Source: Enterobacter phage EC-F2. Taken from it: 64,000 bases of DNA. The position numbers and the translations under genes are program-made. Position 1 is the stretch's first letter; every line of letters begins with the position of its first letter. The notes beneath the pieces were generated by a model, which was not told the DNA's origin, did no database searches, and saw only the letters and a list, made by a program, of their open reading frames with translations. The stretch lies in sequence record MN508624.2. One strand, 5' to 3'. Positions 1-62,037 of the stretch are shown here, piece after piece.

Positions 1-23
1 TCTTTAGCAAAAAGTGCTATTTG

Positions 24-227: not shown

Positions 228-377
228 ACAATCACCTCTGCGAGTTTAGCAGGTTTTGCTTCTGGTCTAACTTTCAACGCATCATTCAGATTCTTTTCAA
301 CCATTGCTACCGCGTCGTTTTCGTTGAAACCGTTCTTAACCAGGACTTTAACTACTTTGGCTTCTAAGTTTTTCATG
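215..377 (-). CDS. hypothetical small protein (54 aa, MKNLEAKVVKVL...). The annotated ORF extends to 499, but the ATG at 377 sits right after the conserved leader/SD.
   Basis: ATG preceded by AAGGAAC SD-like sequence and the conserved ACACACATCGAAACGAAACAGACAAAAGGAAC leader; a sigma70-like promoter lies upstream. Confidence 0.4.
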
Positions 378-413
378 ATGCGTTCCTTTTGTCTGTTTCG
401 TTTCGATGTGTGT

Positions 414-443
414 AATATACTGCATATCGAAATTTGGGTCAAT
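414..443 (-). promoter_or_regulatory. sigma70-like early promoter. Read on the minus strand: TTGACC -17 nt- TATATT. Followed by the conserved leader cassette.
   Basis: Reverse complement of 414-443 gives TTGACCcaaatttcgatatgcagTATATT; the conserved leader follows immediately. Confidence 0.5.
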
Positions 444-450
444 ACCCAAA

Positions 451-936
451 TCAAAGAAAATCGTATTTTTCTTTTAATTTTTCGTAATACGTATCCCATG
501 CGGCTTCGTCGTTGATGATCTCAGTACCGAACCGATAAGCACGTTTGCGCAGTTCGAAACGTTCACGGATACGCTCAACATTGATTTTCACTGATTCCGG
601 CGTTGGTTGCCAGTCCGCGCACAAATGACGATGAAACAGGGAGTTTGACAACGGACTAAGATCGAAATCTTCGTATGCACCGTCCATGTATTCTTTACCG
701 TTACGCGCAAGGTATTCAGCACGTAATGCAGCATGACGATCGCGAAGGTATCCCAGCTTATTGTAAAAGAAGGTTACGTGTCCGGTTCCCAGCGTATACA
801 CAGCAGGGATTTTTGACAGGTTGATTTTTGCCTTACCTGATAAAACGGCATTGGGAATGCGAGGGAGTTCGCGCAGTTCTGCGATCAGGTGTTCGTTCAG
901 CAGAAGAGAAGGATCGATTGTGTTAATACGTGTCAT
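451..936 (-). CDS. denV: endonuclease V (pyrimidine dimer DNA glycosylase), DenV homolog
   Basis: Internal start MTRINTIDPSLLLNEHLIAELRELPRIP...GTGHVTFFYNKL matches the T4 DenV N-terminus (MTRINLTLV...LMAEYRELPRV...GAGHVTFFYDKL, as I recall it). AAGGAGG RBS upstream of the ATG at 936. Confidence 0.75.
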   Translation of the reverse strand: MTRINTIDPSLLLNEHLIAELRELPRIPNAVLSGKAKINLSKIPAVYTLGTGHVTFFYNKLGYLRDRHAALRAEYLARNGKEYMDGAYEDFDLSPLSNSLFHRHLCADWQPTPESVKINVERIRERFELRKRAYRFGTEIINDEAAWDTYYEKLKEKYDFL

Positions 937-964
937 AGTTGCCTCCTTTTGGTATGTGCGCAAT

Positions 965-996
965 ATACAAAAAAGCCTCTTGCAATGCAAGAGGCT
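965..996 (-). terminator. rho-independent terminator (hairpin agcctcttgcaatgcaagaggct plus a T-run on the minus strand)
   Basis: GC-rich perfect hairpin followed by TTTTTT in the minus-strand reading, downstream of the 1004..1309 gene. Confidence 0.5.
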
Positions 997-1003
997 ATTA
1001 AAA

Positions 1004-1309
1004 TTATTTTGCCAGTGGTATAAGCATCTTTCGCATACCGCCGTTTTGTGTCGCATCATACACGCGTTTAGCTTCAATAAGGGAAAGTTCGATATGGTAT
1101 GATTTCCCTTTCCCGTCAAAATCAAACGTTACTGTGCCGCTTGCTACGCTTACATGAGTAAAGATGAACTCACCAGCGAAATGCTTTCGAAACGCTTTGT
1201 CATGATCTAGGAACCATTCAAACGCTTCTCCGTGCTGGTACAGTCTGACGATAATCATTGAAACTATGACGAAAATCAGAACTGCTGCGACGATCGTAAG
1301 TTCTTTCAT
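1004..1309 (-). CDS. hypothetical membrane-anchored protein
   Basis: N-terminal hydrophobic helix LTIVAAVLIFVIVSMIIV; the ATG overlaps the stop of the upstream ORF (ATGA). Confidence 0.45.
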   Translation of the reverse strand: MKELTIVAAVLIFVIVSMIIVRLYQHGEAFEWFLDHDKAFRKHFAGEFIFTHVSVASGTVTFDFDGKGKSYHIELSLIEAKRVYDATQNGGMRKMLIPLAK

Positions 1310-1671: not shown

Positions 1672-1704
1672 GTTTCATCCTCTTTTGTTTCAGTCCCTAC
1701 AAAA

Positions 1705-1740
1705 TAACAAAGCCCCTGCACGAATGCAAGGGCTTTTTAT
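1705..1740. terminator. bidirectional rho-independent terminator (agcccctgcacgaatgcaagggct)
   Basis: Hairpin flanked by an A-run on one side and a T-run on the other; lies after the stop of the LysM gene. Confidence 0.5.
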
Positions 1741-8511: not shown

Positions 8512-8738
8512 TTCACTAAACCTTCTTTAACGCCCTCTTTCATGGCTTTCAGAACACCGATAAAAGCGTCTTTGCCACCGATAGCGCCGATGATAAGCAT
8601 CAGGACACCAACACAACCCGCTAAACCGATTCTGAACAGGTTCCATGCAAACGGGATAGCCAGAAGCACTAACCACGGGAACGGAAATCCCATAAGTGCG
8701 TTTAGAACCAGTAAGATAAAAGCGATTGCAAGTTTCAT
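8508..8738 (-). CDS. small membrane protein (start trimmed to the internal ATG with AAGGAGG RBS)
   Basis: Two TM helices; RBS caaacaaaggaggacatcATG. Confidence 0.4.
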   Translation of the reverse strand: MKLAIAFILLVLNALMGFPFPWLVLLAIPFAWNLFRIGLAGCVGVLMLIIGAIGGKDAFIGVLKAMKEGVKEGLVK

Positions 8739-8803
8739 GATGTCCTCCTTTGTTTGTTTAGAATAAGGTATCACCTTTCGAGAAGGATTGCAATACCTAC
8801 AGA

Positions 8804-8832: not shown

Positions 8833-9087
8833 TTATGCTTTGTTGATTAGATACCGAAGAACGTTTTTGGCCTGAACTTCGTTACAGCAGAGTTTGAATT
8901 CTGGGTCGATTGGGAGGAAGCCCCAGAGGAAATCAACGCTACCTTCAACATCTGCTTTCCCACTTTTCAGCATTTCAACCAGCAAACCTCTGTTTACTAC
9001 GCTGTTCACTACTGCATCGAAATAACCCGCGCTGAAATCCAGTTCTGGGTTCATCACTTCGTCGTATGGGTTGTTCAGTAAGTTCAT
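8833..9087 (-). CDS. hypothetical protein (84 aa)
   Basis: ORF in operon orientation. Confidence 0.4.
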   Translation of the reverse strand: MNLLNNPYDEVMNPELDFSAGYFDAVVNSVVNRGLLVEMLKSGKADVEGSVDFLWGFLPIDPEFKLCCNEVQAKNVLRYLINKA

Positions 9088-9168
9088 TTGGTATCTCCTT
9101 TAATCCGTTTCGTTGTCTACGGGAGTCATATTATCACAATCATAACTCCCGTCAACCCCTAATCAGGA

Positions 9169-15450: not shown

Positions 15451-15482
15451 AATTTAGTCCTCACAAGTGGTATGTAACCAAT

Positions 15483-15514
15483 ATAACAAAGCCCCTGCAT
15501 TTCTGCAAGGGCTT
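15483..15514 (-). terminator. rho-independent terminator (agcccctgcatttctgcaagggct)
   Basis: Long perfect hairpin after the regA stop. Confidence 0.45.
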
Positions 15515-21654: not shown

Positions 21655-21732
21655 TTCAATACCTCGTTGTTGTTGAATGAAACTGATTATAGTGATCACT
21701 TTTTCAAAGTCAATAGATCATTTCAAAAATCT

Positions 21733-21889: not shown

Positions 21890-21923
21890 TGATTTTATTA
21901 AATAATATAGATTGGAAGTAGGT

Positions 21924-21952
21924 TTGAAACACCTGATTCAATCGGCTATAAT
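21924..21952 (+). promoter_or_regulatory. consensus sigma70 promoter (TTGAAA -17- TATAAT) for gene 55
   Basis: TTGAAAcacctgattcaatcggcTATAAT about 25 nt upstream of GGAG...ATG of gp55. Confidence 0.6.
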
Positions 21953-21977
21953 GAATGTATTCAATTTGGAGAATATA

Positions 21978-22493: not shown

Positions 22494-22717
22494 AAATTAA
22501 AATTGACCTGAACAAAATTTTAGCAGATGCTAACGACGAAATTGATCTGCTTCCTTACCTTGTGAAATTAGAGTTGCAGAGCTTAGGGATTCCGATTATC
22601 ATCGACCCTACAGATGTACGAGATCCAGACTTCCAGATAACAGAAGGTCGTCTGGACTATGTAATAAACGCCGAAACAATGATCATGGAGATCACTTACT
22701 ATGAACGTGCAGCATGA
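22490..22717 (+). CDS. hypothetical protein (75 aa)
   Basis: ORF with overlapping start and stop, between 55 and 47. Confidence 0.4.
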   Translation: MKIKIDLNKILADANDEIDLLPYLVKLELQSLGIPIIIDPTDVRDPDFQITEGRLDYVINAETMIMEITYYERAA

Positions 22718-23045
22718 AGTAATCGACGAAGTACACCAAAAATCAGCGCTGGATCTTCGTGAAGAAGAACTGGAATCCATCAAGGGTACACGCATTGAAC
22801 AGGAAGCCCTACGCAAAGCGCAAAAGTTCATGCGGAAGAACAAAGCGGAATGGAAGCGACTGCATAAACACGCAGAGAACGCACTCTTCGAAGGTAACAA
22901 AGAGCAGTACGTATACGCGATCAAAAAGATGCGTGATATGCTCAAGCAACCATACAACGATGAACTGATTGAAACGATGTGGATCACTTCGAACCAGCAG
23001 TTGAAAGACCTGTTCATCATGGCTTCTGAAAAATACGGCAAATAA
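22701..23045 (+). CDS. hypothetical coiled-coil protein (114 aa)
   Basis: ORF in the position where T4 carries alpha-gt; no glycosyltransferase motifs. Confidence 0.4.
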   Translation: MNVQHEVIDEVHQKSALDLREEELESIKGTRIEQEALRKAQKFMRKNKAEWKRLHKHAENALFEGNKEQYVYAIKKMRDMLKQPYNDELIETMWITSNQQLKDLFIMASEKYGK

Positions 23046-23066
23046 ACCCCTTCGGGGGTTTTGAGG
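23044..23066 (+). terminator. rho-independent terminator (aaccccttcgggggtt)
   Basis: Hairpin plus TTTTG immediately before the gp47 start. Confidence 0.5.
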
Positions 23067-23071
23067 TTTAT

Positions 23072-24091
23072 ATGAACTATGTTTTAATTGGGGATACCCA
23101 TGCCGGACTTCGCCAGGATAACCCCTGGAACGAAGAAAACCTGTATGCGGTATTCAAACAGATCGTAGAGTATTGCAAAGAACACGGGATCACGCGCGGC
23201 TTCCATGCTGGCGACTTCTTCGACGTTCGAAAAGCAACCACACAAACGACAATGAATTTTGTTCGTGAAAAGCTGGTTCCTCTTCTGATTGAGGCGGGGA
23301 TCACTCTGGATGTTCTTGTCGGCAACCACGATTGCCAATTTAAGGACAAAATACGCCCCAACGCGCCACGCGAGATACTAAGTCAATACGAATGCTTTAA
23401 TGTCATCGACGAACCGACCACGGTTGATTTAGGTGGCGGAAATTCGATTGACCTGATCCCGTGGATTTGTCAGGAAAACAGCCAGCGTATTTTTGACTAC
23501 ATCAAACAATCGAAAGCTAACTTTTGTTTGGGACACTTCGAACTGTCTGGTTACTATTTCTACAAGAACAGCAAAGCCGATCATGGGATGGAACCTGATT
23601 TCTTGAAGAAGTACGATCGCGTTTACTCTGGACACTATCACCACGCTAACGAAGGTGACAACGTGTTTTACATCGGTACGCCTCTGACTATGAGCGCTAA
23701 CGACGAAGACGAAACACGCGGTTTCTATGTGTTCACGGGCAAGCCTGAATTGACTTTCATCGCTAACCCTGTGTGTCACCATCGCCGGATCATGTATCCA
23801 GCACAGAAAGATGTTGATCTTGAACAGTTCCGTAACTGTGCGGTGCGTCTGATTGTCAGTGAAATTGATCAGGGGCTTGCAAAGTTCCAAACCAAAATTG
23901 AAGAAATTGCCTATGAAATCAATATCATAGACAAAGTTCAAACTGATTCGGATGTCGATACCGACTTTGAAATCAAAACCGTTCGTGGCCTTATCACTGA
24001 GTATATCGCCAACATGCAGATCACCGACGATGAAAAAGAGGAAGTGAATAAGCTGATCAGCGAACTATACGCGGAGGTGTCAAGTGCATAG
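23072..24091 (+). CDS. 47: recombination endonuclease subunit gp47 (Mre11-like)
   Basis: GDTHAG...HAGDFFD...GNHD phosphoesterase motifs; 339 aa, the same as T4 gp47; extensive collinearity (ANFCLGHFELSGYYFYK versus ASFCVGHWELNGFYFYK). Confidence 0.9.
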   Translation: MNYVLIGDTHAGLRQDNPWNEENLYAVFKQIVEYCKEHGITRGFHAGDFFDVRKATTQTTMNFVREKLVPLLIEAGITLDVLVGNHDCQFKDKIRPNAPREILSQYECFNVIDEPTTVDLGGGNSIDLIPWICQENSQRIFDYIKQSKANFCLGHFELSGYYFYKNSKADHGMEPDFLKKYDRVYSGHYHHANEGDNVFYIGTPLTMSANDEDETRGFYVFTGKPELTFIANPVCHHRRIMYPAQKDVDLEQFRNCAVRLIVSEIDQGLAKFQTKIEEIAYEINIIDKVQTDSDVDTDFEIKTVRGLITEYIANMQITDDEKEEVNKLISELYAEVSSA

Positions 24092-24374
24092 CCGTTATGA
24101 TGAATATTTCGGGGCGAATCCCCGATATTCTCACCTGTTGCGTATGTTGGGAATGAAACACATCATTTCCACATCCGACGAAGCAGGGGAAACCAGCGCA
24201 GTTTGTTTGACCATCATGAAGGGTGCATGGCATTCATCACGAACATGGTCAATATTCATGCTTGATACACTGGACGACGATACTCTATCATATAGTATTG
24301 ATTCATCAGTTGTTCAAATGATCACTGAATTATGTGAACGGATTTTAAATGAAACTAAACTTCAAAAAAATTAA
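24084..24374 (+). CDS. hypothetical protein (96 aa), 46.1-like position
   Basis: ORF between 47 and 46. Confidence 0.4.
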   Translation: MHSRYDEYFGANPRYSHLLRMLGMKHIISTSDEAGETSAVCLTIMKGAWHSSRTWSIFMLDTLDDDTLSYSIDSSVVQMITELCERILNETKLQKN

Positions 24375-26052
24375 GTATCAAAATATTCTGTCGGTCGGGA
24401 ACACCCCGATCGAACTGGAATTTGATACGGCAAAGAAAACCCTGATCACGGGGAAAAACGGTGGCGGTAAATCGACACTGATCGAGGCTTTAACCTATGC
24501 CCTGTTCGGTAAGTCATTCCGCGATCTAAAAGTCGGGCAGTTGGTGAACAGCGTCAACAAAAAGAAATGCCTGGTTGAACTGGAAATCGAATACGGGAAA
24601 GACTCGTACAAAGTTGTGCGCGGACAAAAGCCGAAGGTGTTCGAGATCTGGAAGAACGGCGAGAAGTTGCCGGAAGACTCCGCAGCAGGTGATTATCAGG
24701 CACAGCTTGAATCTATGCTGAACATCAACCTTGTGGGCTTCAAACAGGTTATCGTTCTGGGTACAGCGGGTTACACCCCATTCATGGAACTGAAAACCCC
24801 CGAACGCCGGAAACTGGTTGAAGATTTGCTGTCTCTGTCCGTCATCAGTGAAATGGACAAGTTAAACAAGTCATACATTCGCGGTGTTAATCAGCAGTTG
24901 GATACACTCTCAATGCAGGGTAATCACATCCAGCAGCAGATCGCAACACACCAGCGCTTCATTGACGAACAGCGATCGAAAGCAAACCAGAACAACGCCC
25001 GATACAAAGAGATCTACGATAGCCACGTAGAAACCGCAAAGAACATCAAAGCACAGCTTATGCAGTTGCAAGCGGAGATTGCGGAATCGGTGATCACTGG
25101 AGAAGACCGGACGGAAGATATCAACAAACTCCGTGACGGTTATTCGCGGCTCTCAATGACTGTAGAGCAGTTTAAAAAGCTGGAGGTGATGTATCAGAAA
25201 GGCGGTGAGTGTCCGGCCTGTAAGCAAGCGATTAAACCCACTCCTGAGCGTATGGCGGAGATCGCAGAGAACATCAAAGCGGGTACACAGCGTTTAACCC
25301 TGATCAAAACCAAACAGGACGAGTTACAAGGGATCATGAATGACTTGCTGCAACAGCAACGCGCACTCAATGCCCTGAAAACCAAATATGAAGCCCTGAA
25401 AGGTACTCTGCAAAACGAAGTTGCCAACGCTAAACGCGCACAGGCGATCATGGAACAGGCAAGCGCGGAAGTAGTCATTGATGAAGAACCCGTGAAGCAG
25501 TTGCAACAGCAGGAAGCAGAACTGAACGAAAAACGACAAGGCTACGTCAAGGAAAAATATATTCGTGGTATTGTTACGGATATGTTGAAAGATTCCGGCG
25601 TTAAAGCGAGTATCGTTAAGCGTTATATTCCGTACTTCAACAAACAGATAGCATATTATCTGGATCTGTTGGGTGCTGATTATCAGTTTACTTTAGATGA
25701 CGAGTTCAACGAATCGATCAAATCACTGGGGCGCGATGATTTCAGTTATGCGTCATTCAGTCAAGGCGAACGCGCTCGCATCAACTTGTCTATTCTGTTC
25801 ACATGGCGTGACGTGACAAGTAAAGTATCAGGCGTGGATCTGTCTCTGCTGGTACTTGATGAAGTGTTTGATGGGCCGCTTGATAAAGAGGGTTCATTCG
25901 CGATTAAATCCCTGCTGGATTCTGTAGATGGTAACGTTATTGTAATCAGTCACCAGGATCTTGATCCGCAGGACTTCGACCGCCACATCATCATGTCTAA
26001 GGTTGGGCGGTTCACAAAACCATCAATCAAAGATATGGCGATCTCATGTTAG
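24349..26052 (+). CDS. 46: recombination endonuclease subunit gp46 (Rad50/SbcC-like ATPase)
   Basis: Walker A GKNGGGKST; long coiled-coil centre with a CPAC zinc hook; signature and D-loop (LLVLDEVFDG) at the C-terminus; 567 aa versus T4 560 aa. Confidence 0.9.
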   Translation: MKLNFKKIKYQNILSVGNTPIELEFDTAKKTLITGKNGGGKSTLIEALTYALFGKSFRDLKVGQLVNSVNKKKCLVELEIEYGKDSYKVVRGQKPKVFEIWKNGEKLPEDSAAGDYQAQLESMLNINLVGFKQVIVLGTAGYTPFMELKTPERRKLVEDLLSLSVISEMDKLNKSYIRGVNQQLDTLSMQGNHIQQQIATHQRFIDEQRSKANQNNARYKEIYDSHVETAKNIKAQLMQLQAEIAESVITGEDRTEDINKLRDGYSRLSMTVEQFKKLEVMYQKGGECPACKQAIKPTPERMAEIAENIKAGTQRLTLIKTKQDELQGIMNDLLQQQRALNALKTKYEALKGTLQNEVANAKRAQAIMEQASAEVVIDEEPVKQLQQQEAELNEKRQGYVKEKYIRGIVTDMLKDSGVKASIVKRYIPYFNKQIAYYLDLLGADYQFTLDDEFNESIKSLGRDDFSYASFSQGERARINLSILFTWRDVTSKVSGVDLSLLVLDEVFDGPLDKEGSFAIKSLLDSVDGNVIVISHQDLDPQDFDRHIIMSKVGRFTKPSIKDMAISC

Positions 26053-30354: not shown

Positions 30355-32601
30355 ATGAGTGATATTAAAACAGTAGTGAAGTCTTCTGGCGTAAGTCAAA
30401 CGTTCGAAAAAGAAAAACTGTTCAAAGTCCTTAATTGGGCAAGTATTGGAAGAAATATTGATGTTAACGCATTCCTTGAAAGTGTCGTTGACCTGCTTCG
30501 TGATGGTATGACTACCAAACAGATCCAGGCTGTAGCGATCAAGTATGCAGCGGATCGAATCTCCGCAAAAGAACCTGACTGGCAGTATGTAGCGGCTAAC
30601 CTCGAAATGTTCGCCCTTCGTAAAACCGTTTACGGGCAGTTTGACCCGATTCCGTTCTACGAACACATCACTAAGCTGGTTGAGGCTGGAAAATACGATA
30701 AAGAAATCCTGACAAAATGGACTCCAGCGGAGATTGATTATCTGGAATCGAAAATCAATCACGATAAAGATTTTGAATTTTCGTATGCTGGCGTTCAGCA
30801 GTTGATCGGGAAATATCTGTTGCAGGATCGCACGTCCGGCGACATCTACGAAACACCACAGTATGCATTCATGCTGATCGCGATGTGTCTGCATCAGGAC
30901 GAAAAACACGCTGATAAAATCAGTCATGTTGTTGACTTCTATAACGCGATTTCGGATCGTAAACTGTCATTACCTACGCCTATTATGGCGGGTGTGCGTA
31001 CTCCTACGCGTCAGTTCTCCAGTTGTGTTGTAATCGAATCGGGTGATTCTCTGGGTTCTCTGAACGCTGTTACGTCCGCGATCGTGAAGTATATCTCCCA
31101 ACGTGCGGGTATCGGTGTCAACGCCGGACATATTCGCGCTATGGGTTCAAAAATCCGTGGTGGTGAAGCAGTACATACAGGCGTTATCCCGTTCTGGAAA
31201 CACATTCAGACGGCGGTTAAATCCTGTTCCCAGGGCGGTGTTCGTGGTGGTGCAGCAACCCTGTATTATCCGATCTGGCATCTTGAAGTTGAAAACCTGC
31301 TGGTTCTGAAAAATAACCGTGGCGTTGAAGAAAACCGTATTCGTCACCTGGATTATGGTGTACAGCTTAACGATTTGATGTATAAGCGTTTAATCAATAA
31401 CGATTACATCACTCTGTTCAGCCCTGACGTTGCAAACGATCGCCTGTATGACGCGTTCTATCAAGCGGATCAGACTGAGTTTGAAGAACTGTATACCAGT
31501 CTTGAAAAAGACCCAACGGTACGCAAGAAACGCATCAAAGCGGTAGATCTGTTCCAGTTGCTTGTTCAGGAACGCGCACAGACCGGACGCAACTACATTT
31601 TCAACAGTCATCACGTAAACCAGCAGGGTAGTTTCTCTGTTCCGGTTCGTATGTCGAACCTGTGCTGTGAAATCGCGATCCCAACTTCACCGCTGGATGA
31701 CGATGATAAACTGGCTGGCGAAATTGGACTGTGTACGCTTATGGCGATCGTTCTCGATAATGCCGATATAAGCGAATTCCCAGCCCTTACACGCATCGCA
31801 GTACGCGCACTGGATAACTTGCTTGATTACCAGAACTACCCTGTTGCAGCGGCTCTGAAAGCCAAACAGCGTCGTTCTCTGGGTGTTGGTATTACCAACT
31901 ATGCATCATGGCTGGCAAGCAACTATTGCGACTACTCCGAAGCATATGCCGGAAACGTTCATGAGTTGATGGAAGCGTTTCAATTTAACCTGCTGGTTGC
32001 CTCTATGGAACTCGCACAGGAACGCGGTGCATGTGGACTGTTCCACGAAACGAAATATGCACAAGGGCTGTTGCCTATTGACTGGTACTGCAAAAACGTT
32101 GATGAACTGGCATCACCTGTGTATAACTGCGATTGGGAATGGTTACGCGGTGAAATCAAAAAACATGGCTTGCGTAACTCAACGCTTTCTGCTTTAATGC
32201 CTTGTGAAAGTAGCTCGCAGGTAAGTAACTCAACCAACGGGATTGAACCCCCACGCGGCCCTGTGAGTGTGAAATCTTCGAAAGAAGGTTCATTCAATCA
32301 GGTAGTACCAAACCAGAATAATCAGATTGACTTCTATGATTATCTCTGGACAATGGCAAAACGTGGAAACAAAGGTTATCTGTCTCATGTAGCGGTTATG
32401 CAGAAGTTTGTTGATCAGGCTATCTCTGCAAACACAAACTATGATCCGGCTAACTTCCCAGATGGTAAAGTGAAATCTGAAATCATCCTTGAAGATCTGC
32501 TGTATGCAAACTATTTCGGCATCAAAACGCTGTACTACCACAACACCCGCGACGGTGCAGGTGAGGAAGAAGCGGAAGATTGCGAAGGTTGCAAAATTTG
32601 A
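30355..32601 (+). CDS. nrdA: aerobic ribonucleotide reductase large subunit
   Basis: ATP-cone N-terminus, active-site region ...SNLCCEIA..., C-terminal CEGC; 748 aa versus T4 NrdA 754 aa. Confidence 0.9.
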   Translation: MSDIKTVVKSSGVSQTFEKEKLFKVLNWASIGRNIDVNAFLESVVDLLRDGMTTKQIQAVAIKYAADRISAKEPDWQYVAANLEMFALRKTVYGQFDPIPFYEHITKLVEAGKYDKEILTKWTPAEIDYLESKINHDKDFEFSYAGVQQLIGKYLLQDRTSGDIYETPQYAFMLIAMCLHQDEKHADKISHVVDFYNAISDRKLSLPTPIMAGVRTPTRQFSSCVVIESGDSLGSLNAVTSAIVKYISQRAGIGVNAGHIRAMGSKIRGGEAVHTGVIPFWKHIQTAVKSCSQGGVRGGAATLYYPIWHLEVENLLVLKNNRGVEENRIRHLDYGVQLNDLMYKRLINNDYITLFSPDVANDRLYDAFYQADQTEFEELYTSLEKDPTVRKKRIKAVDLFQLLVQERAQTGRNYIFNSHHVNQQGSFSVPVRMSNLCCEIAIPTSPLDDDDKLAGEIGLCTLMAIVLDNADISEFPALTRIAVRALDNLLDYQNYPVAAALKAKQRRSLGVGITNYASWLASNYCDYSEAYAGNVHELMEAFQFNLLVASMELAQERGACGLFHETKYAQGLLPIDWYCKNVDELASPVYNCDWEWLRGEIKKHGLRNSTLSALMPCESSSQVSNSTNGIEPPRGPVSVKSSKEGSFNQVVPNQNNQIDFYDYLWTMAKRGNKGYLSHVAVMQKFVDQAISANTNYDPANFPDGKVKSEIILEDLLYANYFGIKTLYYHNTRDGAGEEEAEDCEGCKI

Positions 32602-32606
32602 TTCAA

Positions 32607-32627
32607 TGCCCCTTCGGGGGCTTTTTA
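32607..32627 (+). terminator. rho-independent terminator (gccccttcgggggc)
   Basis: Hairpin plus TTTTT between nrdA and nrdB. Confidence 0.5.
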
Positions 32628-32639
32628 TAAGGTAAATCC

Positions 32640-33815
32640 ATGTTAACTGTAATGAACACAAACCCAGATCACAAACACTTAGAACAGCCTATGTTCTTTG
32701 GTGAGGATACGGGCGTAGCACGATACGAAGAACAGAAACACCGTGTATTCGAAACCCTGACTGAAAAACAACTGTCATTCTTCTGGCGACCGGAAGAAGT
32801 GGATCTGTCTATCGACCGTATGCAGTACGCGAAAATGCCGGAACACGAAAAAATCATTTTCGATTCAAACCTGCAATATCAAACCCTGCTGGATACCATT
32901 CAGGGGCGCGGCCCGAACCTGGCGTTCCTCCCTATCGCTTCCGATGTCTCAATGGAAACGTGGATCGAAACATGGGCGTTCAGTGAAACAATCCATAGCC
33001 GCAGTTACACGCACATTCAGCGCAACCTACACATCGACCCGTCGAAAGAGTTCGATAAGATTCTGCGCAACGAAGCGATCATGAAACGTTCTGCTTCCAT
33101 GACAAAATACTACGATGATCTGATCGCAGAATGTCATGAACTGAAAAATATTGTACTCAAGCTGGAACTGTTTACCTCTCACGGATACCCAGACGAATCG
33201 ATCGCAGAGTACGAGAAGAAACGCAAAGAGCAAATGCGTAAATGCAAGGTTGCTCTATACCTGTGTATGCACGCTGTCAACGCTCTGGAAGCGATCCGCT
33301 TCTACGTGTCGTTTACCTTCACGTTCAACTTTGCCGAACAAGGCAAGATGGAAGGTAACGCGAAGATCATGCGTCTGATTGCCCGTGATGAAGCACTTCA
33401 CCAGAAAGGCACTCAAAGCAAGATCCGACTCTGGCAGATGGGTAAAGATGACCCAGAAATGGCGGAAATCGCTTACCAGTACGAAGAGGAAGCGACAAAG
33501 ATTTTCCTGGAAGTATACGAACAGGAAAAAGAATGGGCTGAACACCTGTTCTCTATCGGTGATGTAGACGGCGTATCCCTGAAAAGTACGATCGCCTATA
33601 TTGAACACCTGACGGATCAGCGTATGCGCGCGGTTGGCTTGCAGTCTCCATTTAAACCAACGCCGAACCCGTATCCATGGATGAACAAATGGTTGAAGTC
33701 TGACAACGTACAGGTAGCCCCGCAAGAGGTTGAAGTAAGTTCTTACCTGGTTGGCAACCTCAACACTGAGATCAGCGACGAAGCCTATGCAAAATGGCGA
33801 CAAAAATACGCTTGA
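32640..33815 (+). CDS. nrdB: ribonucleotide reductase small subunit (uninterrupted)
   Basis: Di-iron ligands (...ETIHSRSY..., ...RDEALH...) and the tyrosyl radical site; 391 aa versus T4 388 aa. Confidence 0.9.
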   Translation: MLTVMNTNPDHKHLEQPMFFGEDTGVARYEEQKHRVFETLTEKQLSFFWRPEEVDLSIDRMQYAKMPEHEKIIFDSNLQYQTLLDTIQGRGPNLAFLPIASDVSMETWIETWAFSETIHSRSYTHIQRNLHIDPSKEFDKILRNEAIMKRSASMTKYYDDLIAECHELKNIVLKLELFTSHGYPDESIAEYEKKRKEQMRKCKVALYLCMHAVNALEAIRFYVSFTFTFNFAEQGKMEGNAKIMRLIARDEALHQKGTQSKIRLWQMGKDDPEMAEIAYQYEEEATKIFLEVYEQEKEWAEHLFSIGDVDGVSLKSTIAYIEHLTDQRMRAVGLQSPFKPTPNPYPWMNKWLKSDNVQVAPQEVEVSSYLVGNLNTEISDEAYAKWRQKYA

Positions 33816-34098
33816 TTGTCGCGTCGTAAACAAGTATAAAAGTGATTGGGATGTCGATATTCAAAGAGGTACGAAGTTCGGCAATCCCTTTTACAAGGGA
33901 ACACGGGGTGAAAACATTCTTAACTTCATCCCGTATTTCCAAAACTTGATTCGAACTGGCGTGATCACAATCGACGAACTGAAAGAACTGGACGGGAAGC
34001 GGTTAGGCTGTAGTTGCAAACCCTTACCGTGTCACGGTGATTATATTGCTCACTGCGTCAATGTGTTGACCGGAAAGGTGAATAAGTTGGATATATAA
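33787..34098 (+). CDS. DUF4326-like small protein (conserved GTKFGNPF ... CxC ... CHGD)
   Basis: Motifs RGTKFGNPF and CSCKPLPCHGD; overlaps the 3' end of nrdB by about 29 nt; start uncertain (the table ORF begins at a TTG at 33751). Confidence 0.4.
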   Translation: MQNGDKNTLDCRVVNKYKSDWDVDIQRGTKFGNPFYKGTRGENILNFIPYFQNLIRTGVITIDELKELDGKRLGCSCKPLPCHGDYIAHCVNVLTGKVNKLDI

Positions 34099-34517
34099 TG
34101 GACGATGTAACGTTTGGTGTAATATTTCCTTTGCGTCTGGGTTCAGACAAAAGGATAGATCGGAGTTTTGTTAAATGTGGCGAATTCCGGCATTGTGTGT
34201 ATTTTATTGAAATCGACGGTCGGATAGTGTATGTTGGAAAATGTCGTGATTTGTGGAAGCGGTTAGACACATACCGCAATTCGAAATACTGGCGGGAAGC
34301 AAACCCCAGTAACATTTTGAAAACCGCACGTCTGGAAATGGCAATCAAAAAACGTAAGCGTGTAAATCTTATCGTGACAACACACGATGAAGAAACATAT
34401 CATGATTTTGAAATAAACATGATCCGAAAAATCAATCCTGAATGGAACAAACAGCACTATGACAAATCTAACCAAAAATCAGAAAACCTTATTCAACCAG
34501 TTGATGAAACTGTGTAA
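34098..34517 (+). CDS. denA: endonuclease II (GIY-YIG family)
   Basis: CVYFIEIDGRIVYVGKCRDLWKRLDTYR and KINPEWNKQHYDK parallel T4 DenA (VIYAIAINDELVYIGKTKNLRKRINYYR ... LFNPPWNIQHKK); 139 aa versus 136 aa; position after nrdB as in T4. Confidence 0.7.
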   Translation: MDDVTFGVIFPLRLGSDKRIDRSFVKCGEFRHCVYFIEIDGRIVYVGKCRDLWKRLDTYRNSKYWREANPSNILKTARLEMAIKKRKRVNLIVTTHDEETYHDFEINMIRKINPEWNKQHYDKSNQKSENLIQPVDETV

Positions 34518-35616: not shown

Positions 35617-35939
35617 CATTACCAGCCTTTCCAAAGTTAACTTCTTTGGTGTGGCCTGTGCTTGTTGCCCTGTCTTTGGCAGGGCTTTTGTACATGACAA
35701 TCACGCTAAAGAGCGAAAACGATCAATTGGCTAAAGATATCAAAGAGTTACAGGCTGATATCAAAAAAGTCAAAGAGACAAACAACACCAATACGGTGAT
35801 CTATGTCGAACAAAAAGGTAAGGATCAGCAGTTGGTCAAGGATGCCGGACGTAAAGATCTGCTGTTCAAGAAACCAGGACTGATCGAAATCAAGATCAAC
35901 AAGTCCTTCGAAGAGTATATGGCGGAGTACGACAAATGA
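35613..35939 (+). CDS. i-spanin (pseT.3-like)
   Basis: N-terminal TM helix (LVWPVLVALSLAGLLYMTI) followed by a coiled-coil periplasmic domain; immediately precedes a lipoprotein gene and pseT, as in T4. Confidence 0.6.
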   Translation: MTLPAFPKLTSLVWPVLVALSLAGLLYMTITLKSENDQLAKDIKELQADIKKVKETNNTNTVIYVEQKGKDQQLVKDAGRKDLLFKKPGLIEIKINKSFEEYMAEYDK

Positions 35940-39007: not shown

Positions 39008-39084
39008 GGCCCTTTAGCTTAATTGGTTAGAGCGGGTGACTCATAATCGCGCGGTTGCTGGTTCAAGTCCAGCAGGGGCCACCA
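39008..39084 (+). tRNA. tRNA-Met (anticodon CAT; could instead be Ile2 if lysidinylated)
   Basis: Cloverleaf folded by hand: acceptor GGCCCTT/AGGGGCC, D-arm GCTT-AATTGGTTA-GAGC, anticodon loop CTCATAA, T-arm GCTGG-TTCAAGT-CCAGC, encoded CCA. The anticodon stem has a G27-G43 mismatch. Confidence 0.8.
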
Positions 39085-39089
39085 AATAC

Positions 39090-39165
39090 GCAGGTGTAGT
39101 TCAATTGGTAGAATATCTGGTTTCCATCCAGATTGTTGAGGGTTCGAGTCCCTTCACCTGCTCCA
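39090..39165 (+). tRNA. tRNA-Gly (anticodon TCC)
   Basis: Acceptor GCAGGTG/CACCTGC, anticodon stem TCTGG/CCAGA with loop TTTCCAT, T-arm GAGGG-TTCGAGT-CCCTT, encoded CCA. Confidence 0.8.
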
Positions 39166-40994: not shown

Positions 40995-41000
40995 AATCAA

Positions 41001-41028
41001 GCCGTTGCCGAAAGGTAGCGGCTTTTTT
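41001..41028 (+). terminator. rho-independent terminator (gccgttgccgaaaggtagcggc)
   Basis: Hairpin with a GAAA loop plus TTTTTT. Confidence 0.5.
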
Positions 41029-41044: not shown

Positions 41045-41109
41045 AATGCTTGCACTGAATCGTGAGTATGGTAAAGTACACACATCGAAACGAAACTGAG
41101 GATGACATT
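41045..41109 (+). promoter_or_regulatory. MotA-box-like middle-promoter element (aATGCTTGCa ... TATGGT) plus the conserved leader cassette
   Basis: aaataATGCTTGCActgaatcgtgagTATGGTaaagtACACACATCGAAACGAAACtgaggatgacattATG. Confidence 0.4.
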
Positions 41110-41406
41110 ATGAAGAAAACTTACAACATGAAAGAACTGGTTTGCTTCAACACTCGTCGTGAAGCCCGTGCGTATGTTCTGGCTGCTGGTAAGAATACCT
41201 CTGCTGTAATCGACCTGGGTACTGATAAAGCTGTTGGCGCACGTTGGGCTGCTGTTGTGGTTATCGCTGCTCCTGTGACTCCTGTTAAAACTCTGGTTCT
41301 GGGTGCGCGTAAAGCCGAAACTCTGAAAACCAGCACTTGCGGGGCGGGTGGTGTTCATAATGTTACGGTCATTCGAAAAAGATCTTTTAATCGAGTCGGT
41401 GTATGA
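41110..41406 (+). CDS. hypothetical protein (98 aa)
   Basis: ATG immediately after the conserved leader; competing antisense ORFs ignored. Confidence 0.35.
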   Translation: MKKTYNMKELVCFNTRREARAYVLAAGKNTSAVIDLGTDKAVGARWAAVVVIAAPVTPVKTLVLGARKAETLKTSTCGAGGVHNVTVIRKRSFNRVGV

Positions 41407-41937: not shown

Positions 41938-42212
41938 TAGGTTATAAAGATTATGATGAAAGAGTAGAATGCGCGTTCCTGTTCAAAGGCGCGATCAATC
42001 CGCTGGCATTACTCCACGCGCAGGGCGCTTTGAGTTCTACCCTGATTATGGGTGTTATCTACAAAGCGGGTGTGTATTACGTTACCATCGGCGCGAACAA
42101 CATCAACGTGATCAACAGCTATGTTGAAAAATGCAAGCTGAGAGATATCGTATTCGATAAAATCGAAATGGATGTTCCGGGTTTCGACGCTGTTTATATG
42201 TACAAGGGCTGA
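41934..42212 (+). CDS. hypothetical protein (92 aa)
   Basis: Overlapping start; operon. Confidence 0.35.
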   Translation: MIGYKDYDERVECAFLFKGAINPLALLHAQGALSSTLIMGVIYKAGVYYVTIGANNINVINSYVEKCKLRDIVFDKIEMDVPGFDAVYMYKG

Positions 42213-43050: not shown

Positions 43051-44551
43051 ACTCGCTTCGACTCTGAAAATTTCAGAGAAGGAAGCGATCCTGAAACGTA
43101 ATGCAGGTAATGATCTGCTAAAAGAGATTTTCCGCATTACGTACACGAAACAGATTATGTTTCACATTAAGAAGTTTCCGCAGGTGGACGGTAAGCCAGG
43201 CACAACCCCGCTATCGAATGCTATCGCGGATTTGATGTCTGATTTGGCAACGCGAAAATATACGGGCAATGCAGCCCGTGATCGTCTGCTGGATATCGTA
43301 TCATCGGTGAATGAGAATGATCGCGAAGTGCTTCGCCGTATCATTAACCGCGATCTGGAATGTGGTGCTGGTACAACGTTACCAAACCGCGTATGGAAGA
43401 AACTCATTCCAGAACAGCCTCAGTGCCTCGCTACGCCGTTTAGCGAAAAAGCATTAAAACGTATTCGCTTCCCTGCTTACTCGCAGCTTAAAGCCGATGG
43501 TGCGCGTTGTATGTCCGATCTGTTAGAGAATCAGATCCGCAAAGCAACCCGCGCGGGAAATGAGTATGAAGGTTTGGTGAATCTGGACAAGGATCTGAAA
43601 AAGATTCGTGAATATCTGGGTTATGATGTTGTACTTGATGGAGAACTGATTTATGTCCCTGCTGAAAAAACTGCTGTCGTTCCTTCAAACAGCGTTCCAT
43701 TTAGTCTTGCTGGGTTTATGGGCGATGACGACGATTCTGTTTCTGACCTTGTGGCAGATGTTAGGCGGGAAGCTACCGAGAACGAGACACAAGCGGAAGC
43801 GAAACGCGAAGAGGGCAACGGGATTGTAAACAAATCCCTGAAAGGCACTATCAGCGACGAAGAACAGCGCAATATCGTTTATGTTGTCTGGGATATCGTA
43901 CCGTATGAAGTGTACTATGGTGATGCTCCGAGTGTTCAACCATATTGCGATCGCTTTAGCATCCTGGAAGGTGCGCTGGCTGGCTCTGGTGTAACATCGG
44001 TTAAGCTGATCCCTTCTATCCTGGTGCAGAACTACGCGGAAGCGAAAAAGGATTACAACAATTACCGCAATGACGGTAAAGAGGGTTCAATCCTGAAAAA
44101 CGTTGATTTCAAATGGAAGGATTCACGCGTTGCGGATCAGGTGAAGTTGAAGAACAAAACACCGATCGAACTGCGAATCATTGACGTGTACGAACACACC
44201 AAAGAACCTCATAAGGTTGGCGGGTTCGTGGTTGAGGACTTATCAGGAGAAGCCAGAACAAACACAGGTTCCGGTCTGACTGATACGGATTACCGATACG
44301 ATGAAGACGGTATTAACCGCGTGTACATCCCGTTAGAAGAACGTGGTGAACTGGATCGCGAATACATTATGGCGAACAAAGATGACTATATCGGCGCTAT
44401 CGTCGAAATGGAAGTTGACGGACTCCAGAAATCGAAAACGCGTAAGAAGGGCGAACCTGAGTTCAGTTTCTTCCTGCCAATCATCAAGAAGATTCGACGC
44501 GATAAGACCGAACCGGATGACATTCACGTTATCTTCGCTGATCTGTTTTAA
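43028..44551 (+). CDS. 30: ATP-dependent DNA ligase gp30
   Basis: MILQILNELAS...FPAYSQLKADGARC (KxDG adenylation motif) and C-terminal FLPIIKKIRRDKTEPDDIHVIFADLF parallel T4 ligase; carries an acidic insertion (DDDDSVSDL...) not present in T4. Confidence 0.9.
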   Translation: MILQILNELASTLKISEKEAILKRNAGNDLLKEIFRITYTKQIMFHIKKFPQVDGKPGTTPLSNAIADLMSDLATRKYTGNAARDRLLDIVSSVNENDREVLRRIINRDLECGAGTTLPNRVWKKLIPEQPQCLATPFSEKALKRIRFPAYSQLKADGARCMSDLLENQIRKATRAGNEYEGLVNLDKDLKKIREYLGYDVVLDGELIYVPAEKTAVVPSNSVPFSLAGFMGDDDDSVSDLVADVRREATENETQAEAKREEGNGIVNKSLKGTISDEEQRNIVYVVWDIVPYEVYYGDAPSVQPYCDRFSILEGALAGSGVTSVKLIPSILVQNYAEAKKDYNNYRNDGKEGSILKNVDFKWKDSRVADQVKLKNKTPIELRIIDVYEHTKEPHKVGGFVVEDLSGEARTNTGSGLTDTDYRYDEDGINRVYIPLEERGELDREYIMANKDDYIGAIVEMEVDGLQKSKTRKKGEPEFSFFLPIIKKIRRDKTEPDDIHVIFADLF

Positions 44552-44569
44552 ATAGCACTTTTTGCTAAA

Positions 44570-44643
44570 GAAGCCCCTTGCATATGTGAGGGGCTTTTTG
44601 TATATTACACACATCGAAACGAAACAGACAAAAGGAACATCCC
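44570..44643 (+). promoter_or_regulatory. PeSL-like cassette: terminator hairpin (agccccttgcatatgtgaggggct) fused to TATATT plus the conserved leader
   Basis: aagccccttgcatatgtgaggggctttttgTATATTACACACATCGAAACGAAACAGACAAAAGGAACatcccATG. Confidence 0.55.
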
Positions 44644-44916
44644 ATGCAAATCACTAAAGAACTCGAAGGCAAAGTAATCGTTCTGGTAAATGAAGACCGT
44701 TTGGCACAACTGGGTAACGGTGGTGAAAAACTGCCAGCGGACGCACTCGAAAGCCTTTCTAAAATGCGCGTGATGCGCGTTACTGACGGTTGGGTTACTT
44801 GTCTGCCTCTGAACGACGAAGACAAAGCCGTATACGATGCACAAGCGGATTCATGGGATATCGAAGTACCTCTGGTAAACATCGAAGTTGAAGAGTGCTA
44901 CGAAATCGAAAAATAA
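44644..44916 (+). CDS. hypothetical protein (90 aa)
   Basis: ATG after the conserved leader. Confidence 0.45.
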   Translation: MQITKELEGKVIVLVNEDRLAQLGNGGEKLPADALESLSKMRVMRVTDGWVTCLPLNDEDKAVYDAQADSWDIEVPLVNIEVEECYEIEK

Positions 44917-44977
44917 TGCTTGCTTACTGGGTAATGTAGTGGTACATTACCCATATCGAAACGAAAGGAGAAACATC
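44911..44977 (+). promoter_or_regulatory. MotA-box-like element (aATGCTTGCt) plus a variant of the conserved leader
   Basis: aaataATGCTTGCTtactgggtaatgtagtggtacattacccATATCGAAACGAAAGGAGaaacatcATG. Confidence 0.4.
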
Positions 44978-45157
44978 ATGAAAATTATACACACTGCAAA
45001 TCAACTTCAAAACGGCAACTACGCTATCCACGATGCTATCGGTGCGCTGGTTGGGGTTTATCTTCATGGTATCAAACTCCTTGAAGTAAGTGGGAATACC
45101 TTTTATGGTGTTGAAAACATCGAAGCAGCGATGGAAATTATCGGTGACCTGAAATGA
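44978..45157 (+). CDS. hypothetical protein (about 59 aa)
   Basis: ATG with a GGAG RBS after the leader. Confidence 0.4.
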   Translation: MKIIHTANQLQNGNYAIHDAIGALVGVYLHGIKLLEVSGNTFYGVENIEAAMEIIGDLK

Positions 45158-53953: not shown

Positions 53954-54168
53954 GCTAATTCCTTCTCGATTGCTTCGATGATGTGGAGAACGTAACCGTT
54001 CAGTTCTTTTGCTTTATCAGCGGCTTCAACCATACCATAACGAGGAACTTCTAAAACGTTCGCACCTTCGAGCAGGTTGCTTTCGATGTCTACGATTACA
54101 TAGCTCTCACCGATTGCCGCGCCTTTTCTCCAGTCTTTTACGAACTTCATCATTTTAGCTTTCATGTT
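53950..54168 (-). CDS. hypothetical protein (about 72 aa, start at MKAKMMKF...)
   Basis: ATG preceded by the conserved leader (minus strand). Confidence 0.4.
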   Translation of the reverse strand, partial: NMKAKMMKFVKDWRKGAAIGESYVIVDIESNLLEGANVLEVPRYGMVEAADKAKELNGYVLHIIEAIEKELA

Positions 54169-54243
54169 CTCGTTCCTTTTGGCTGTTCCGTTTCGATATG
54201 TGTAATATAACAAAGCCCTCACGCGAACGCAAGGGCTTTTTTG
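54169..54243 (-). promoter_or_regulatory. PeSL-like cassette on the minus strand: terminator hairpin (agccctcacgcgaacgcaagggct) followed by TTATATT and the conserved leader
   Basis: Reverse complement reads aaaaaagcccttgcgttcgcgtgagggctttgTTATATTACACATATCGAAACGGAACAGCCAAAAGGAACgagaacATG. Confidence 0.55.
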
Positions 54244-60540: not shown

Positions 60541-60819
60541 TCAGTGTCCGAACACACCACGGATAGACTCTGCGAAAGCGTACAGTTCAGGGTTTTTCGC
60601 TTTCACTGTTTCGATTTGTTCCAGGATGTAATCTGGTTTGTATTTCGCACCGAACCAGCAGTAAGAGAAAGAACGATCCCACATGAACACGTTGTAGTAT
60701 TCACCGTTACGCACTTCAACCATCACGTAACCTGGATTAGAACCCAGCGGGTAATCTTTCAGGAGATTGAATTTCGCACCAGCGCCAGTACATCCGTTAA
60801 ACAGGTCATTAAAAGTCAT
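60541..60819 (-). CDS. hypothetical protein (92 aa)
   Basis: ATG preceded by a variant of the conserved leader (GAAACGAAACTGAAAAGGAAC). Confidence 0.45.
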   Translation of the reverse strand: MTFNDLFNGCTGAGAKFNLLKDYPLGSNPGYVMVEVRNGEYYNVFMWDRSFSYCWFGAKYKPDYILEQIETVKAKNPELYAFAESIRGVFGH

Positions 60820-60860
60820 GGTATGTTCCTTTTCAGTTTCGTTTCAACAAGGCCAATATA

Positions 60861-61076
60861 TTACACTTCGTTAAACCATGCAAGATATTTCTTCTCTTGT
60901 CTGTTCAAAACGTCATAACAAGAGGCGACACAAACGGTTTCCCACACAACTTCATCGTAAGCATTCACGAAGCGAATGATCAGAGTTTTGCCATTAGTCA
61001 TCAAAGCCGGAGTGAACCCAAGTTCTTTAACCGCTTTTACTTTCTTCTGGAATAACGCTTTAGTCATGTTAGCCAT
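60861..61076 (-). CDS. hypothetical protein (about 71 aa, MANMTKALFQKK...)
   Basis: ATG with an AAGGAGG RBS (ccgaaacaaaggaggcacaaaATG). Confidence 0.4.
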   Translation of the reverse strand: MANMTKALFQKKVKAVKELGFTPALMTNGKTLIIRFVNAYDEVVWETVCVASCYDVLNRQEKKYLAWFNEV

Positions 61077-61116
61077 TTTGTGCCTCCTTTGTTTCGGTAA
61101 AGCTAAGGTATCACTA

Positions 61117-62037
61117 TCAATCAGACAGTGCAAGCACTTTTTTAATTTGTTTTGCAATTGCTTCGATCACCGGAACCGAAACAGAGTTCCCTGCCTGTTT
61201 ATATGCTTGCTTCTTGCTTGTCGGGATCTGGAATGAATCTGGGAAGCCCTGCAAGCGGAAACATTCACGCGGGGTTAATCGTCGTGGGTTCTTCCCGTCC
61301 TGTAACACCAGACATTGAACACCGTCCTTGAAGTATTGGGCTGTTATCGTCCCAGTACACACAGAATCGCTTGTGACGGCCTGATAACCGAAACCCTTAC
61401 CGTTTGCCTTATTTCGTTCCTTACGCTCTCTAAAGCCTTTCCATGCGTTATCTGAGAGGGTGAATGAATCATCAGCATCTTCGAGGATGTCGCCTACGCG
61501 TGTAGGTGTACGCGGGGGAACAGGAAATGAAAAGAATACATCATCCAGGAAGCAGACAATAAACACGCGTTCCCGTCTTTGGGGTAGTCCGAAATCCTTT
61601 GTGTTCAGGCGTTGATAGAATACGTTATATCCTTCGGCCTCCAGAAGCCCGTAAATCGTTTTAAACGTCTTCCCCTTGTCATGGGTTAGCAGTTCAGGCA
61701 CGTTCTCAAAGAACAACACACGGGGCTTTTTAGCGCGTATAATGCGGAGGATTTCGAAGAACACCGTACCGCGTACATCATCAAAGCCCAGTTTCAATCC
61801 GGCTTTACTGAACGCCTGACACGGGAACCCCGCGAGCAGGATATCATGATCAGGTACTTTGTTTTCATCAATGGCGAATAGATCACCCTGTAGGTTATCA
61901 TCGCCCCAGTTTTCGATATATGTTTGCTGTGCGAACTTGTCGATTTCAGACGTTAAAAGGCATTCGACACCGCCGAACGCCTTATCAAATCCTAATCGAA
62001 CCCCGCCCACACCAGCGCAGAGGTCAATTATTTTCAT
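61117..62037 (-). CDS. C5-cytosine DNA methyltransferase (Dcm-class, short, 306 aa)
   Basis: Motif I IDLCAGVGG, motif IV GFPCQAFS, motif VI ENV, motif X-like QAGNSVSVPV. Confidence 0.8.
   Translation of the reverse strand: MKIIDLCAGVGGVRLGFDKAFGGVECLLTSEIDKFAQQTYIENWGDDNLQGDLFAIDENKVPDHDILLAGFPCQAFSKAGLKLGFDDVRGTVFFEILRIIRAKKPRVLFFENVPELLTHDKGKTFKTIYGLLEAEGYNVFYQRLNTKDFGLPQRRERVFIVCFLDDVFFSFPVPPRTPTRVGDILEDADDSFTLSDNAWKGFRERKERNKANGKGFGYQAVTSDSVCTGTITAQYFKDGVQCLVLQDGKNPRRLTPRECFRLQGFPDSFQIPTSKKQAYKQAGNSVSVPVIEAIAKQIKKVLALSD

Follow-up and report, generated by a model that had tools for sequence, protein, structure and literature searches.

Repeated promoter–leader cassettes, probably of the PeSL type, precede small genes in a Pseudotevenvirus and share modules with other phage families

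The DNA analysed here (the window, 64,000 nucleotides of Enterobacter phage EC-F2, MN508624.2) derives from a T4-like phage placed in Pseudotevenvirus (species gap161) and harbors a family of promoter/5'UTR repeats that are probably portable early-expression cassettes of the PeSL (promoter-early stem-loop) type. Judged from sequence comparison, the probability of this assignment, taken jointly with the explanation of expression, gene shuffling and transcript start developed below, is about three in four. The copy at 44570 directly follows the DNA ligase gene and opens a series of small ORFs. Cronobacter phage JC03, also a Pseudotevenvirus, is the closest relative (99% identity over 4 kb), and 177 phage records match.

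The repeat family is real. A pattern search of the kind proposed in the earlier note, using the core CGAAACGAAAC with at most one mismatch, found 12 matches in the window, which is above the random expectation of 2.5, and none of 100 shuffles reached 12. Six of the matches have common flanks with similarity over 60–80 nt, and the other six are intragenic, lack common flanks and look like chance. A six-copy profile (nhmmer) recovered its own copies with E-values of 5e-20 to 6e-13 and the next match at 3e-3, and a covariance model scored the six copies at 52.7–71.2 bits against 14.9 for the next best in the window, bearing out the claim that the repeat occurs at six or more places on both strands. 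In JC03, the model found 11 strong and 3 weaker copies, located at 14.5–15.5, 27, 53, 104–110, 130, 137, 146 and 150 kb among small hypothetical ORFs; all 14 have the same orientation as the genes and end at annotated start codons, and no JC03 copy lies inside the late structural block (58–100 kb). The six window copies and the 14 JC03 matches all directly precede start codons of unrelated small ORFs. Moreover, blastp revealed no mutual relatedness among the six downstream proteins, indicating a regulatory repeat rather than a gene duplication, and an origin by gene duplication was ruled out on this ground. It is hardly conceivable that the repeats arose by chance or are what is left of duplicated genes, because what speaks for it is only the six single-mismatch matches inside genes, against the gap between 53–71 and 15 bits, the count that no shuffle equalled and the unrelated proteins downstream.

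Some details of the first description needed adjustment. The start codons given at 41110, 44644, 44978 and 60819(-) were correct, but that given at 377 has its A at 376 and that given at 54168 has its A at 54165. The apparent protein similarity FCLFRFDVCNI had rightly been called an artefact of the DNA repeat, being its antisense translation at + 387 and - 44633. A generic sigma-70 scan was uninformative (30 sites versus 34 expected) and missed the cassettes because their -35 is TTGCnT. The 46-nt cassette had no match among 5,426 E. coli genomes, and at Rfam gathering thresholds the window matches were two tRNAs only, the cassette itself having no family; these two tRNA genes lie at window 39008–39081 and 39090–39162 (+), where JC03 annotates tRNA-Met and tRNA-Gly.

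The six window copies share one plan (Table 1), in which a -35 (TTGACC, TTGCAT, TTGCGT, TTGCTT or TTGCAC) is followed after a spacer of 16–17 nt by a -10 (TATATT, TACATT or TAAAGT, often with TGg before it), then by exactly 8 nt (ACACAYAT-like, in six of six copies), by CGAAACGAAAC, and by a short A-rich stretch with AAGGA or GGAG as the Shine-Dalgarno sequence ahead of the ATG. From this layout, transcription likely starts at the A of the CAT ending the 8 nt, 7 nt after the -10. An AT-rich tract upstream of the -35 was seen by inspection in the 70-nt flanks and was weakest at the 60886 copy. A hairpin covers the promoter in only three of the six strong copies, over the -35 at 44568–44599 and 54239–54212 and over the -10 at 44929–44952, and two copies have no nearby hairpin. 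Direct reading confirmed the reported fusion of the leader to a GC hairpin and TATATT (44568–44606 and 54239–54204), and the TTGACC reported 17 nt upstream in the minus-strand copy at 363–444 was likewise found with a 17-nt spacer before its TATATT. The elements combining a hairpin with TATATT have predicted hairpin energies of -16 to -21 kcal/mol with T runs, and the hairpin at 44568–44599 is, by its predicted fold, likely the terminator of the upstream ligase transcript. Weaker relatives with a hairpin but without the core lie at 925–1004, 1676–1731 and 15472–15510, all on the minus strand. Hairpins with the -10 in loop or stem (GGGTA...TACCC type) were observed at window 44929–44952(+) and 9080–9149(-), at L007 14980–15010 and at L011 785–810, and correspond to the PeSL subclass with a stem-loop over the -10. 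The related variants noted near 8738 and 61076 are also present, at 8732–8759(-) and 61069–61134(-), both carrying TGATACCTTA...AAACAAAGGAGG.

Table 1. Cassettes, related elements and neighboring features in the window (coordinates from its first letter)
Feature	Coordinates	Strand	Parts and remarks	Model score (bits)
U-box ATAGCACTTTTTGCTAAAGA	44552..44571	+	just after the DNA-ligase stop codon; 15-mer centre about -51 from the inferred start	
GC-rich hairpin and T run	44568..44599	+	RNA fold -21.2 kcal/mol; -35 TTGCAT 44578-44583 inside	
Promoter/leader	44601..44646	+	-10 TATATT 44601-44606; inferred start A44613 in CAT	71.2
Core CGAAACGAAAC	44615-44625	+	followed by A-rich leader with AAGGA and ATG 44644 of a 90-aa ORF	
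Second cassette	44918..44991	+	270 nt downstream; TTGCTT 44920-44925; TACATT 44943-44948 inside hairpin 44929-44952 (-10.7 kcal/mol); core 44957-44967; ATG 44978; 59-aa ORF	52.7
Cassette	41050..41123	+	TTGCAC 41050-41055; 16-nt spacer; TGgTAAAGT (-10 41072-41077); core 41086-41096; ATG 41110; separate terminator-like hairpin 40999-41024, 25 nt upstream	56.1
Hairpin-less cassette	363..444	-	TTGACC 442-437; TATATT 419-414; core 405-395; ATG 376-374	65.9
Hairpin-type cassette	54161..54239	-	hairpin 54239-54212 (-18.0 kcal/mol) containing TTGCGT 54232-54227; TATATT 54209-54204; core 54195-54185 (CGAAACGGAAC); ATG 54165-54163	54.9
Cassette without hairpin	60806..60886	-	TTGCAT 60883-60878; TATATT 60860-60855; core 60846-60836 (TGAAACGAAAC); ATG 60819; JC03 replacement junction inside core	61.6
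Related hairpin and TATATT, core incomplete	925..1004	-	precedes denV-like gene; -16.4 kcal/mol	14.9
denV-like pyrimidine-dimer glycosylase ORF, 161 aa	451..936	-	Pfam Pyr_excise 3e-11; a cassette on each side	
Variant promoter	61069..61134	-	TTGCAC, 17 nt, TGaTACCTT ... CCGAAACAAAGGAGG	
Second TGATACCTTA...AAACAAAGGAGG variant copy	8732..8759	-	different -10	
Weak relative	9080..9149	-	TTGACG...TAATAT; hairpin over -10; CGAAACGGA in leader	13.3
Second U-box/marbox-like copy	3..20	-	promoter and leader fall outside the window	
Hairpin with TTGCA -35, then TTATTTT	1676..1731	-	without core	
Hairpin with TTGCA -35, then TATATT	15472..15510	-	without core	

The aATGCTTGC of two copies had been likened to a MotA box, a suggestion that did not survive closer reading. 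It resolves to a TTGCnn -35 in register with that of the other copies, since it stands 16–17 nt from an extended -10, TGgTAAAGT or TGgTACATT. MotA-dependent middle promoters were defined here by an (a/t)(a/t)(a/t)TGCTTtA box 11–13 bp from TAnnnT together with a motA gene in the genome, and it is very improbable that the copies at 41050 and 44918 belong to them. At 41045, TGCTTGCA lies 12 nt from TATGGT, which fits the MotA geometry, but no TAnnnT lies 11–13 nt from the box at 44917, both copies align in register with the sigma-70 copies, and RB43, the type phage of the genus, has neither a motA gene nor a middle-promoter consensus (Nolan 2006). The MotA reading was rejected on spacing, register and RB43. 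In addition, the three ORFs adjoining the holin gene yielded no AsiA or MotA Pfam match.

Assignment to the PeSL type rests on comparison with the PeSL elements of RB49/phi1 and the PeSL/PmSL elements of T4/PST and KVP40/nt-1 (Arbiol 2010 PMC2839356; Comeau 2014 PMC4122927). Like these, the window repeats have AT-rich upstream DNA, a sigma-70-type -35/-10 with a spacer of about 17 bp (six copies), in three of the six a stem-loop in variable register (over the -35 or the -10), and a Shine-Dalgarno sequence with a start codon at the 3' end (six window copies and 14 JC03 matches); they stand before small ORFs in hyperplastic regions (JC03 matches), and indels or replacements between close relatives have junctions inside them (two of six). 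Furthermore, one RB49 PeSL-type promoter, that before ORF117c, carries the same CATCGAAACGAAAC start. The PeSL architecture put forward in the earlier note finds support in the sigma-70-type promoter/5'UTR, the terminator hairpins of some copies, the plastic regions and the junctions. The stem-loop gives a mixed picture, lying over the promoter in three of six copies and 25 nt upstream in one, and being absent at 363–444 and 60806–60886. In contrast to PeSL elements, conservation here is highest in the transcribed leader rather than in the promoter or stem-loop, TTGCnT is the -35 consensus, a stem-loop over the promoter is missing from half of the copies, and the cassette modules are common to non-T4 phage families.

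Comparison of flanking genes with those of relatives, also suggested earlier, revealed that cassettes mark recombination junctions. Over the ~54 kb compared between the window and JC03 (window 14005–24435 left out), six rearrangements were found; in two of them, both junctions lie within cassette elements, which cover ~1.5% of the window, and the other four are not at cassettes. By a rough binomial estimate for this single genome pair, four junctions would fall in elements by chance with a probability below ~1e-5. JC03 has no counterpart of window 421–953, which comprises the TTGACC promoter and the denV-like gene with its 5'UTR; in JC03 its place is taken by one chimeric cassette with the hairpin of the window element at 996 joined to the leader of the element at 447 at TGTATATT; the 925–1004 element is the left partner of this denV cassette insertion. 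The denV-like gene is absent from JC03 although that arm is otherwise ~97% identical. The second case is window 60845–61135, which is replaced in JC03; the right junction falls inside GAAAC|GAAAC, and the left one coincides with the boundary of variant promoter 61069–61134.

The gene at window 1022–1312(-) has homologues in Slopekvirus 150040 (44% identity, 6e-25) and rV5-like SSBI34 (37%, 5e-13), and a cassette follows it in the window, JC03, 150040 and SSBI34, with a different downstream gene in each. Its product (L011 104–406; L002 1173–1484) is a ~100-aa protein without a Pfam match, conserved in Pseudotevenvirus, Slopekvirus and SSBI34. Compared with window 32601–32640, 33811–34155, 35618–35638 and 41938–41942, JC03 carries extra or replaced segments (L001 8171–8683, 9854–10433, 11896–12430 and 18733–18942) with hypothetical ORFs. 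These differences comprise the nrd/denA/rnlA region and a 208-nt intergenic insert, and none is bounded by a cassette; they may be homing-endonuclease-type insertions.

BLAST with the 46-nt cassette matched 517 phage records, with 5–8 places per genome in Pseudotevenvirus, 6–7 in Slopekvirus and 12 in Yersinia phage JC221. Near-exact partial matches in unannotated intergenic DNA were found in Vequintavirinae (SSBI34, POP15, CR9, F1M1E), Drexlerviridae (Webervirus, Hanrivervirus and others) and RB49. Eleven cassettes were aligned from Pseudotevenvirus, Slopekvirus, Krischvirus, two unclassified Straboviridae, Webervirus, Hanrivervirus, Certrevirus and Vequintavirinae SSBI34. In this alignment, CATCGAAACGA, located 5 nt after the -10, is invariant in 10 cassettes, SSBI34 differing by one base, and is more conserved than the -10 hexamer, which varies as do hairpins and flanks. 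In aaroes and HZJ32, the flanks are unalignable and two perfect islands are kept, the 11-mer being identical at 11 of 11 positions. Moreover, RB49 ORF117c and gp25 of the T1-like phage aaroes (79% identity over 61 aa, E 6e-37) both stand directly behind CATAAT-N5-CATCGAAACGA, indicating that the gene moved together with its leader between a T4-like and a T1-like phage. The shared 61-aa protein is encoded at L005 1552–1737 (RB49) and L016 10977–11162 (aaroes), with 78% identity at the nucleotide level. That different families conserve the core, with its distance from the -10 unchanged, speaks for constraint and would point to host machinery rather than a phage regulator, and the stronger conservation of CATCGAAACGA than of the -10 across families hints at sequence-specific recognition. 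A literature search did not find CGAAACGAAAC, CATCGAAACGA or ATAGCACTTTTTG in a phage context.

From this anatomy, each cassette would let host sigma-70 transcription begin anew immediately before a small accessory gene, and the hairpin-bearing copies would also terminate the incoming transcript. The mRNA would begin AUCGAAACGAAAC(AGACAAAA)GGAAC, and its leader, U-poor, A/C-rich and weakly structured, would leave the Shine-Dalgarno sequence exposed. Initiation regions behind the leader were less structured (-3.2 versus -7.0 kcal/mol over 60 nt, p = 0.004) and poorer in U (13% versus 26%) in a comparison of six genes that includes two chance regex matches, which are not cassette copies. Co-oriented copies, as the comparison of genomes shows, act as short homologies for gene insertion, deletion and replacement, and whole cassettes travel with adjacent genes between phage families. 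The modules are separable, namely an optional U-box, an optional hairpin, the -10, the start/initial-transcribed block CATCGAAACGA and the Shine-Dalgarno sequence. In the strong early promoters T7 A1 and T5 N25, the initial transcribed sequence governs promoter escape, and T7 A1 also starts CATCGA. Like these promoters, the cassettes have a conserved purine-rich initial transcribed region directly after the CAT start; unlike them, the cassettes bring one and the same 11–28 nt to many promoters in several phage families.

As to why the core is conserved, the favoured reading, held tentatively and at slightly less than even odds, is that it forms the first part of the transcript, that selection acts on it for efficient initiation, promoter escape and an open 5'UTR, and that recombination keeps the copies alike; a sequence-specific host factor is the live alternative. 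An invariant 11-mer exceeds what generic leader optimisation needs, which counts against the favoured reading. According to the alternative, CATCGAAACGA(AAC) would be the site of a sequence-specific factor common to enterobacterial hosts, acting on DNA at +1 to +12 or at the RNA 5' end to control early transcripts. The invariance of the block in 10 of 11 cassettes while -10, hairpin and flanks vary, its full retention in aaroes and HZJ32, and its fixed distance to the -10 are all in keeping with such a site. It is nevertheless unlikely, as no known factor or Rfam family matches, no copies occur in E. coli genomes, pairing with MicF is no better than that of shuffles, and the aaroes block has a soft consensus, CAYCGA(A/C)AACGA, from which it often departs, fitting a preference better than an obligatory site. 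The leader–MicF sRNA pairing itself (9-nt complement AAACAGACA/UGUCUGUUU) was rejected, the fraction of shuffles at or below the observed energy being 0.05–0.7.

It is rather doubtful that the core has no function of its own and is conserved solely as a homology tract for the recombination and spread of cassettes, through gene conversion or recent horizontal transfer. One junction falling exactly in GAAAC|GAAAC, the gene and leader common to RB49 and a T1-like phage, and the position of PeSL mini-circle crossovers between -10 and ATG (Arbiol 2010 PMC2839356) would agree with this. On the other hand, Drexlerviridae genera with unalignable flanks still keep the block, the rV5-like phages have a single copy, so that intragenomic conversion cannot maintain it there, and its constant register relative to the -10 hints at involvement in transcription.

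Just upstream of the 44570 cassette lies a conserved box (ATAGCACTTTTTGCTAAA, 44552–44569), the U-box, with further copies at window 3–20(-) and in JC03; neither this box nor the presence of both modules outside T4-type phages figured in the earlier note. The 21-nt intergenic direct repeat of T1-like phages, to which the U-box corresponds, has in TLS the consensus aaATAGCACnnnTTGnTAAAA and 18 intergenic copies, and its function has been listed as an open question (PMC11447400). Window 44550–44570 (aaATAGCACtttTTGcTAAAg) fits this consensus except for the last base. As in T1-like phages, the copies are co-directional, intergenic, just after a stop codon and 79–92 nt before a start codon (92 nt to the ATG in the hairpin type, 79 nt at JC03 14957), and copies recognised by the features that define the T1-like 21-nt repeat (consensus, intergenic, co-directional, about 76 nt before the start) lie at window 44550–44570 and 3–20(-) and at JC03 14509, 14957 and 109330. 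Unlike in T1-like phages, the carrier is a T4-like myovirus; copies number 2 in the window and 5–6 in JC03 versus 18–21 per T1-like genome, and the 44552 copy stands at 29 bp, not 18 bp, from the -10, the intervening DNA holding a hairpin and a separate -35. At JC03 14957, the equivalent of window 3–20(-), the U-box stands 19 bp before TATAGT. In aaroes there are 21 U-box copies, and those in intergenic DNA have a -10-like hexamer 19±1 nt further on, then N5 and CAYCGA(A/C)AACGA.

The U-box agrees with the marbox consensus GCAHWWWWTGYYAAA at 15 of 15 positions, also fits the marbox forms gcannwwntgnnaaa and CACT-7X-AAA, and agrees with the 20-bp AYnGCACnnWnnRYYAAAYn at 13 of 14 specified positions, equal to the micF and mar marboxes. 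Perfect GCAHWWWWTGYYAAA matches number 14 in aaroes versus 0.11 expected and 2 in the window versus 0.05 expected. Read from the genome, the E. coli micF promoter is ACAGCACTGAATGTCAAAAC, 18 bp, TAGAAT, and the aaroes promoters read ATAGCACTTTTTGTTAAAAC with the -10 following after 18 bp, the same spacing and forward orientation as at the micF marbox. As in class II marbox promoters such as micF, where the box is centred at about -41, the aaroes box overlaps the -35 in forward orientation relative to inferred starts; the window U-box, centred at about -51 and accompanied by a -35 of its own, lies one helical turn further upstream. Activation by a forward marbox at -52 has been demonstrated (PMC6900184). 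Unlike chromosomal marboxes, the phage box is far less degenerate.

It is quite possible, if a little short of an even chance, that the U-box is a genuine marbox, in which case host MarA/SoxS/Rob (in Klebsiella and Enterobacter, RamA) would be recruited to the host RNA polymerase at promoters that virulent enterobacterial phages of at least two families build on the micF class II plan, with CATCGAAACGA as another host-directed module of this portable promoter. The 21-nt repeat that would be read in this way precedes most T1-like transcription units. A phage-encoded MarA-like activator was considered and rejected, as tblastn with E. coli MarA gave no match in aaroes, the window or the JC03 parts searched, and aaroes gp79 is Cro/YdaS-like, not AraC-like. 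A literature search found no link of marboxes to phage promoters.

Several further observations concern this box. Identical copies of the 24-mer TAAATAGCACTTTTTGCTAAAGAA occur in ~67 E. coli genomes and 34 small plasmids (from Klebsiella, Salmonella, Citrobacter and Enterobacter), for example at L017 2501–2524 (E. coli ATCC 8739, in an island by intZ) and L018 443–466 (a 4.9-kb MobQ/Rep Klebsiella plasmid), the plasmid copies being located at or immediately before the rep start. No -10 was found at 18 or 29 bp from TAAATAGCACTTTTTGCTAAAGAA in the E. coli islands and MobQ plasmids, and its role there may therefore differ. At window 44549–44569, stop codon and U-box read TAA-ATAG...GCTAAA, which by inspection gives stops in all three frames, so that any ORF fused upstream would terminate; in aaroes, gp17 and gp24 have the TAG of the U-box as their stop codon. 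Outside the window, near hoc, one more perfect marbox-like box was observed at L008 11860–11874(-) (JC03 61860–61874), directly behind one CDS and ~60 nt ahead of the following start codon.

The marbox reading would offer a concrete answer to the question on the function of the 21-nt repeat that the 2024 paper on TLS left open. If true, it would tie phage early expression to host regulators of stress and antibiotic resistance, which would matter for combinations of phage with antibiotics or salicylate-like inducers. The leader appears to be a compact, widely reused expression signal and a possible synthetic-biology part. PeSL cassettes were proposed as an engine of gene shuffling in T4-type phages, and the present locus extends them to Pseudotevenvirus with clean junction evidence. 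Moreover, modules of the cassette, sometimes with adjacent genes, are common to T1-like and rV5-like phages, and regulatory cassettes may thus serve as exchange points across phage families.
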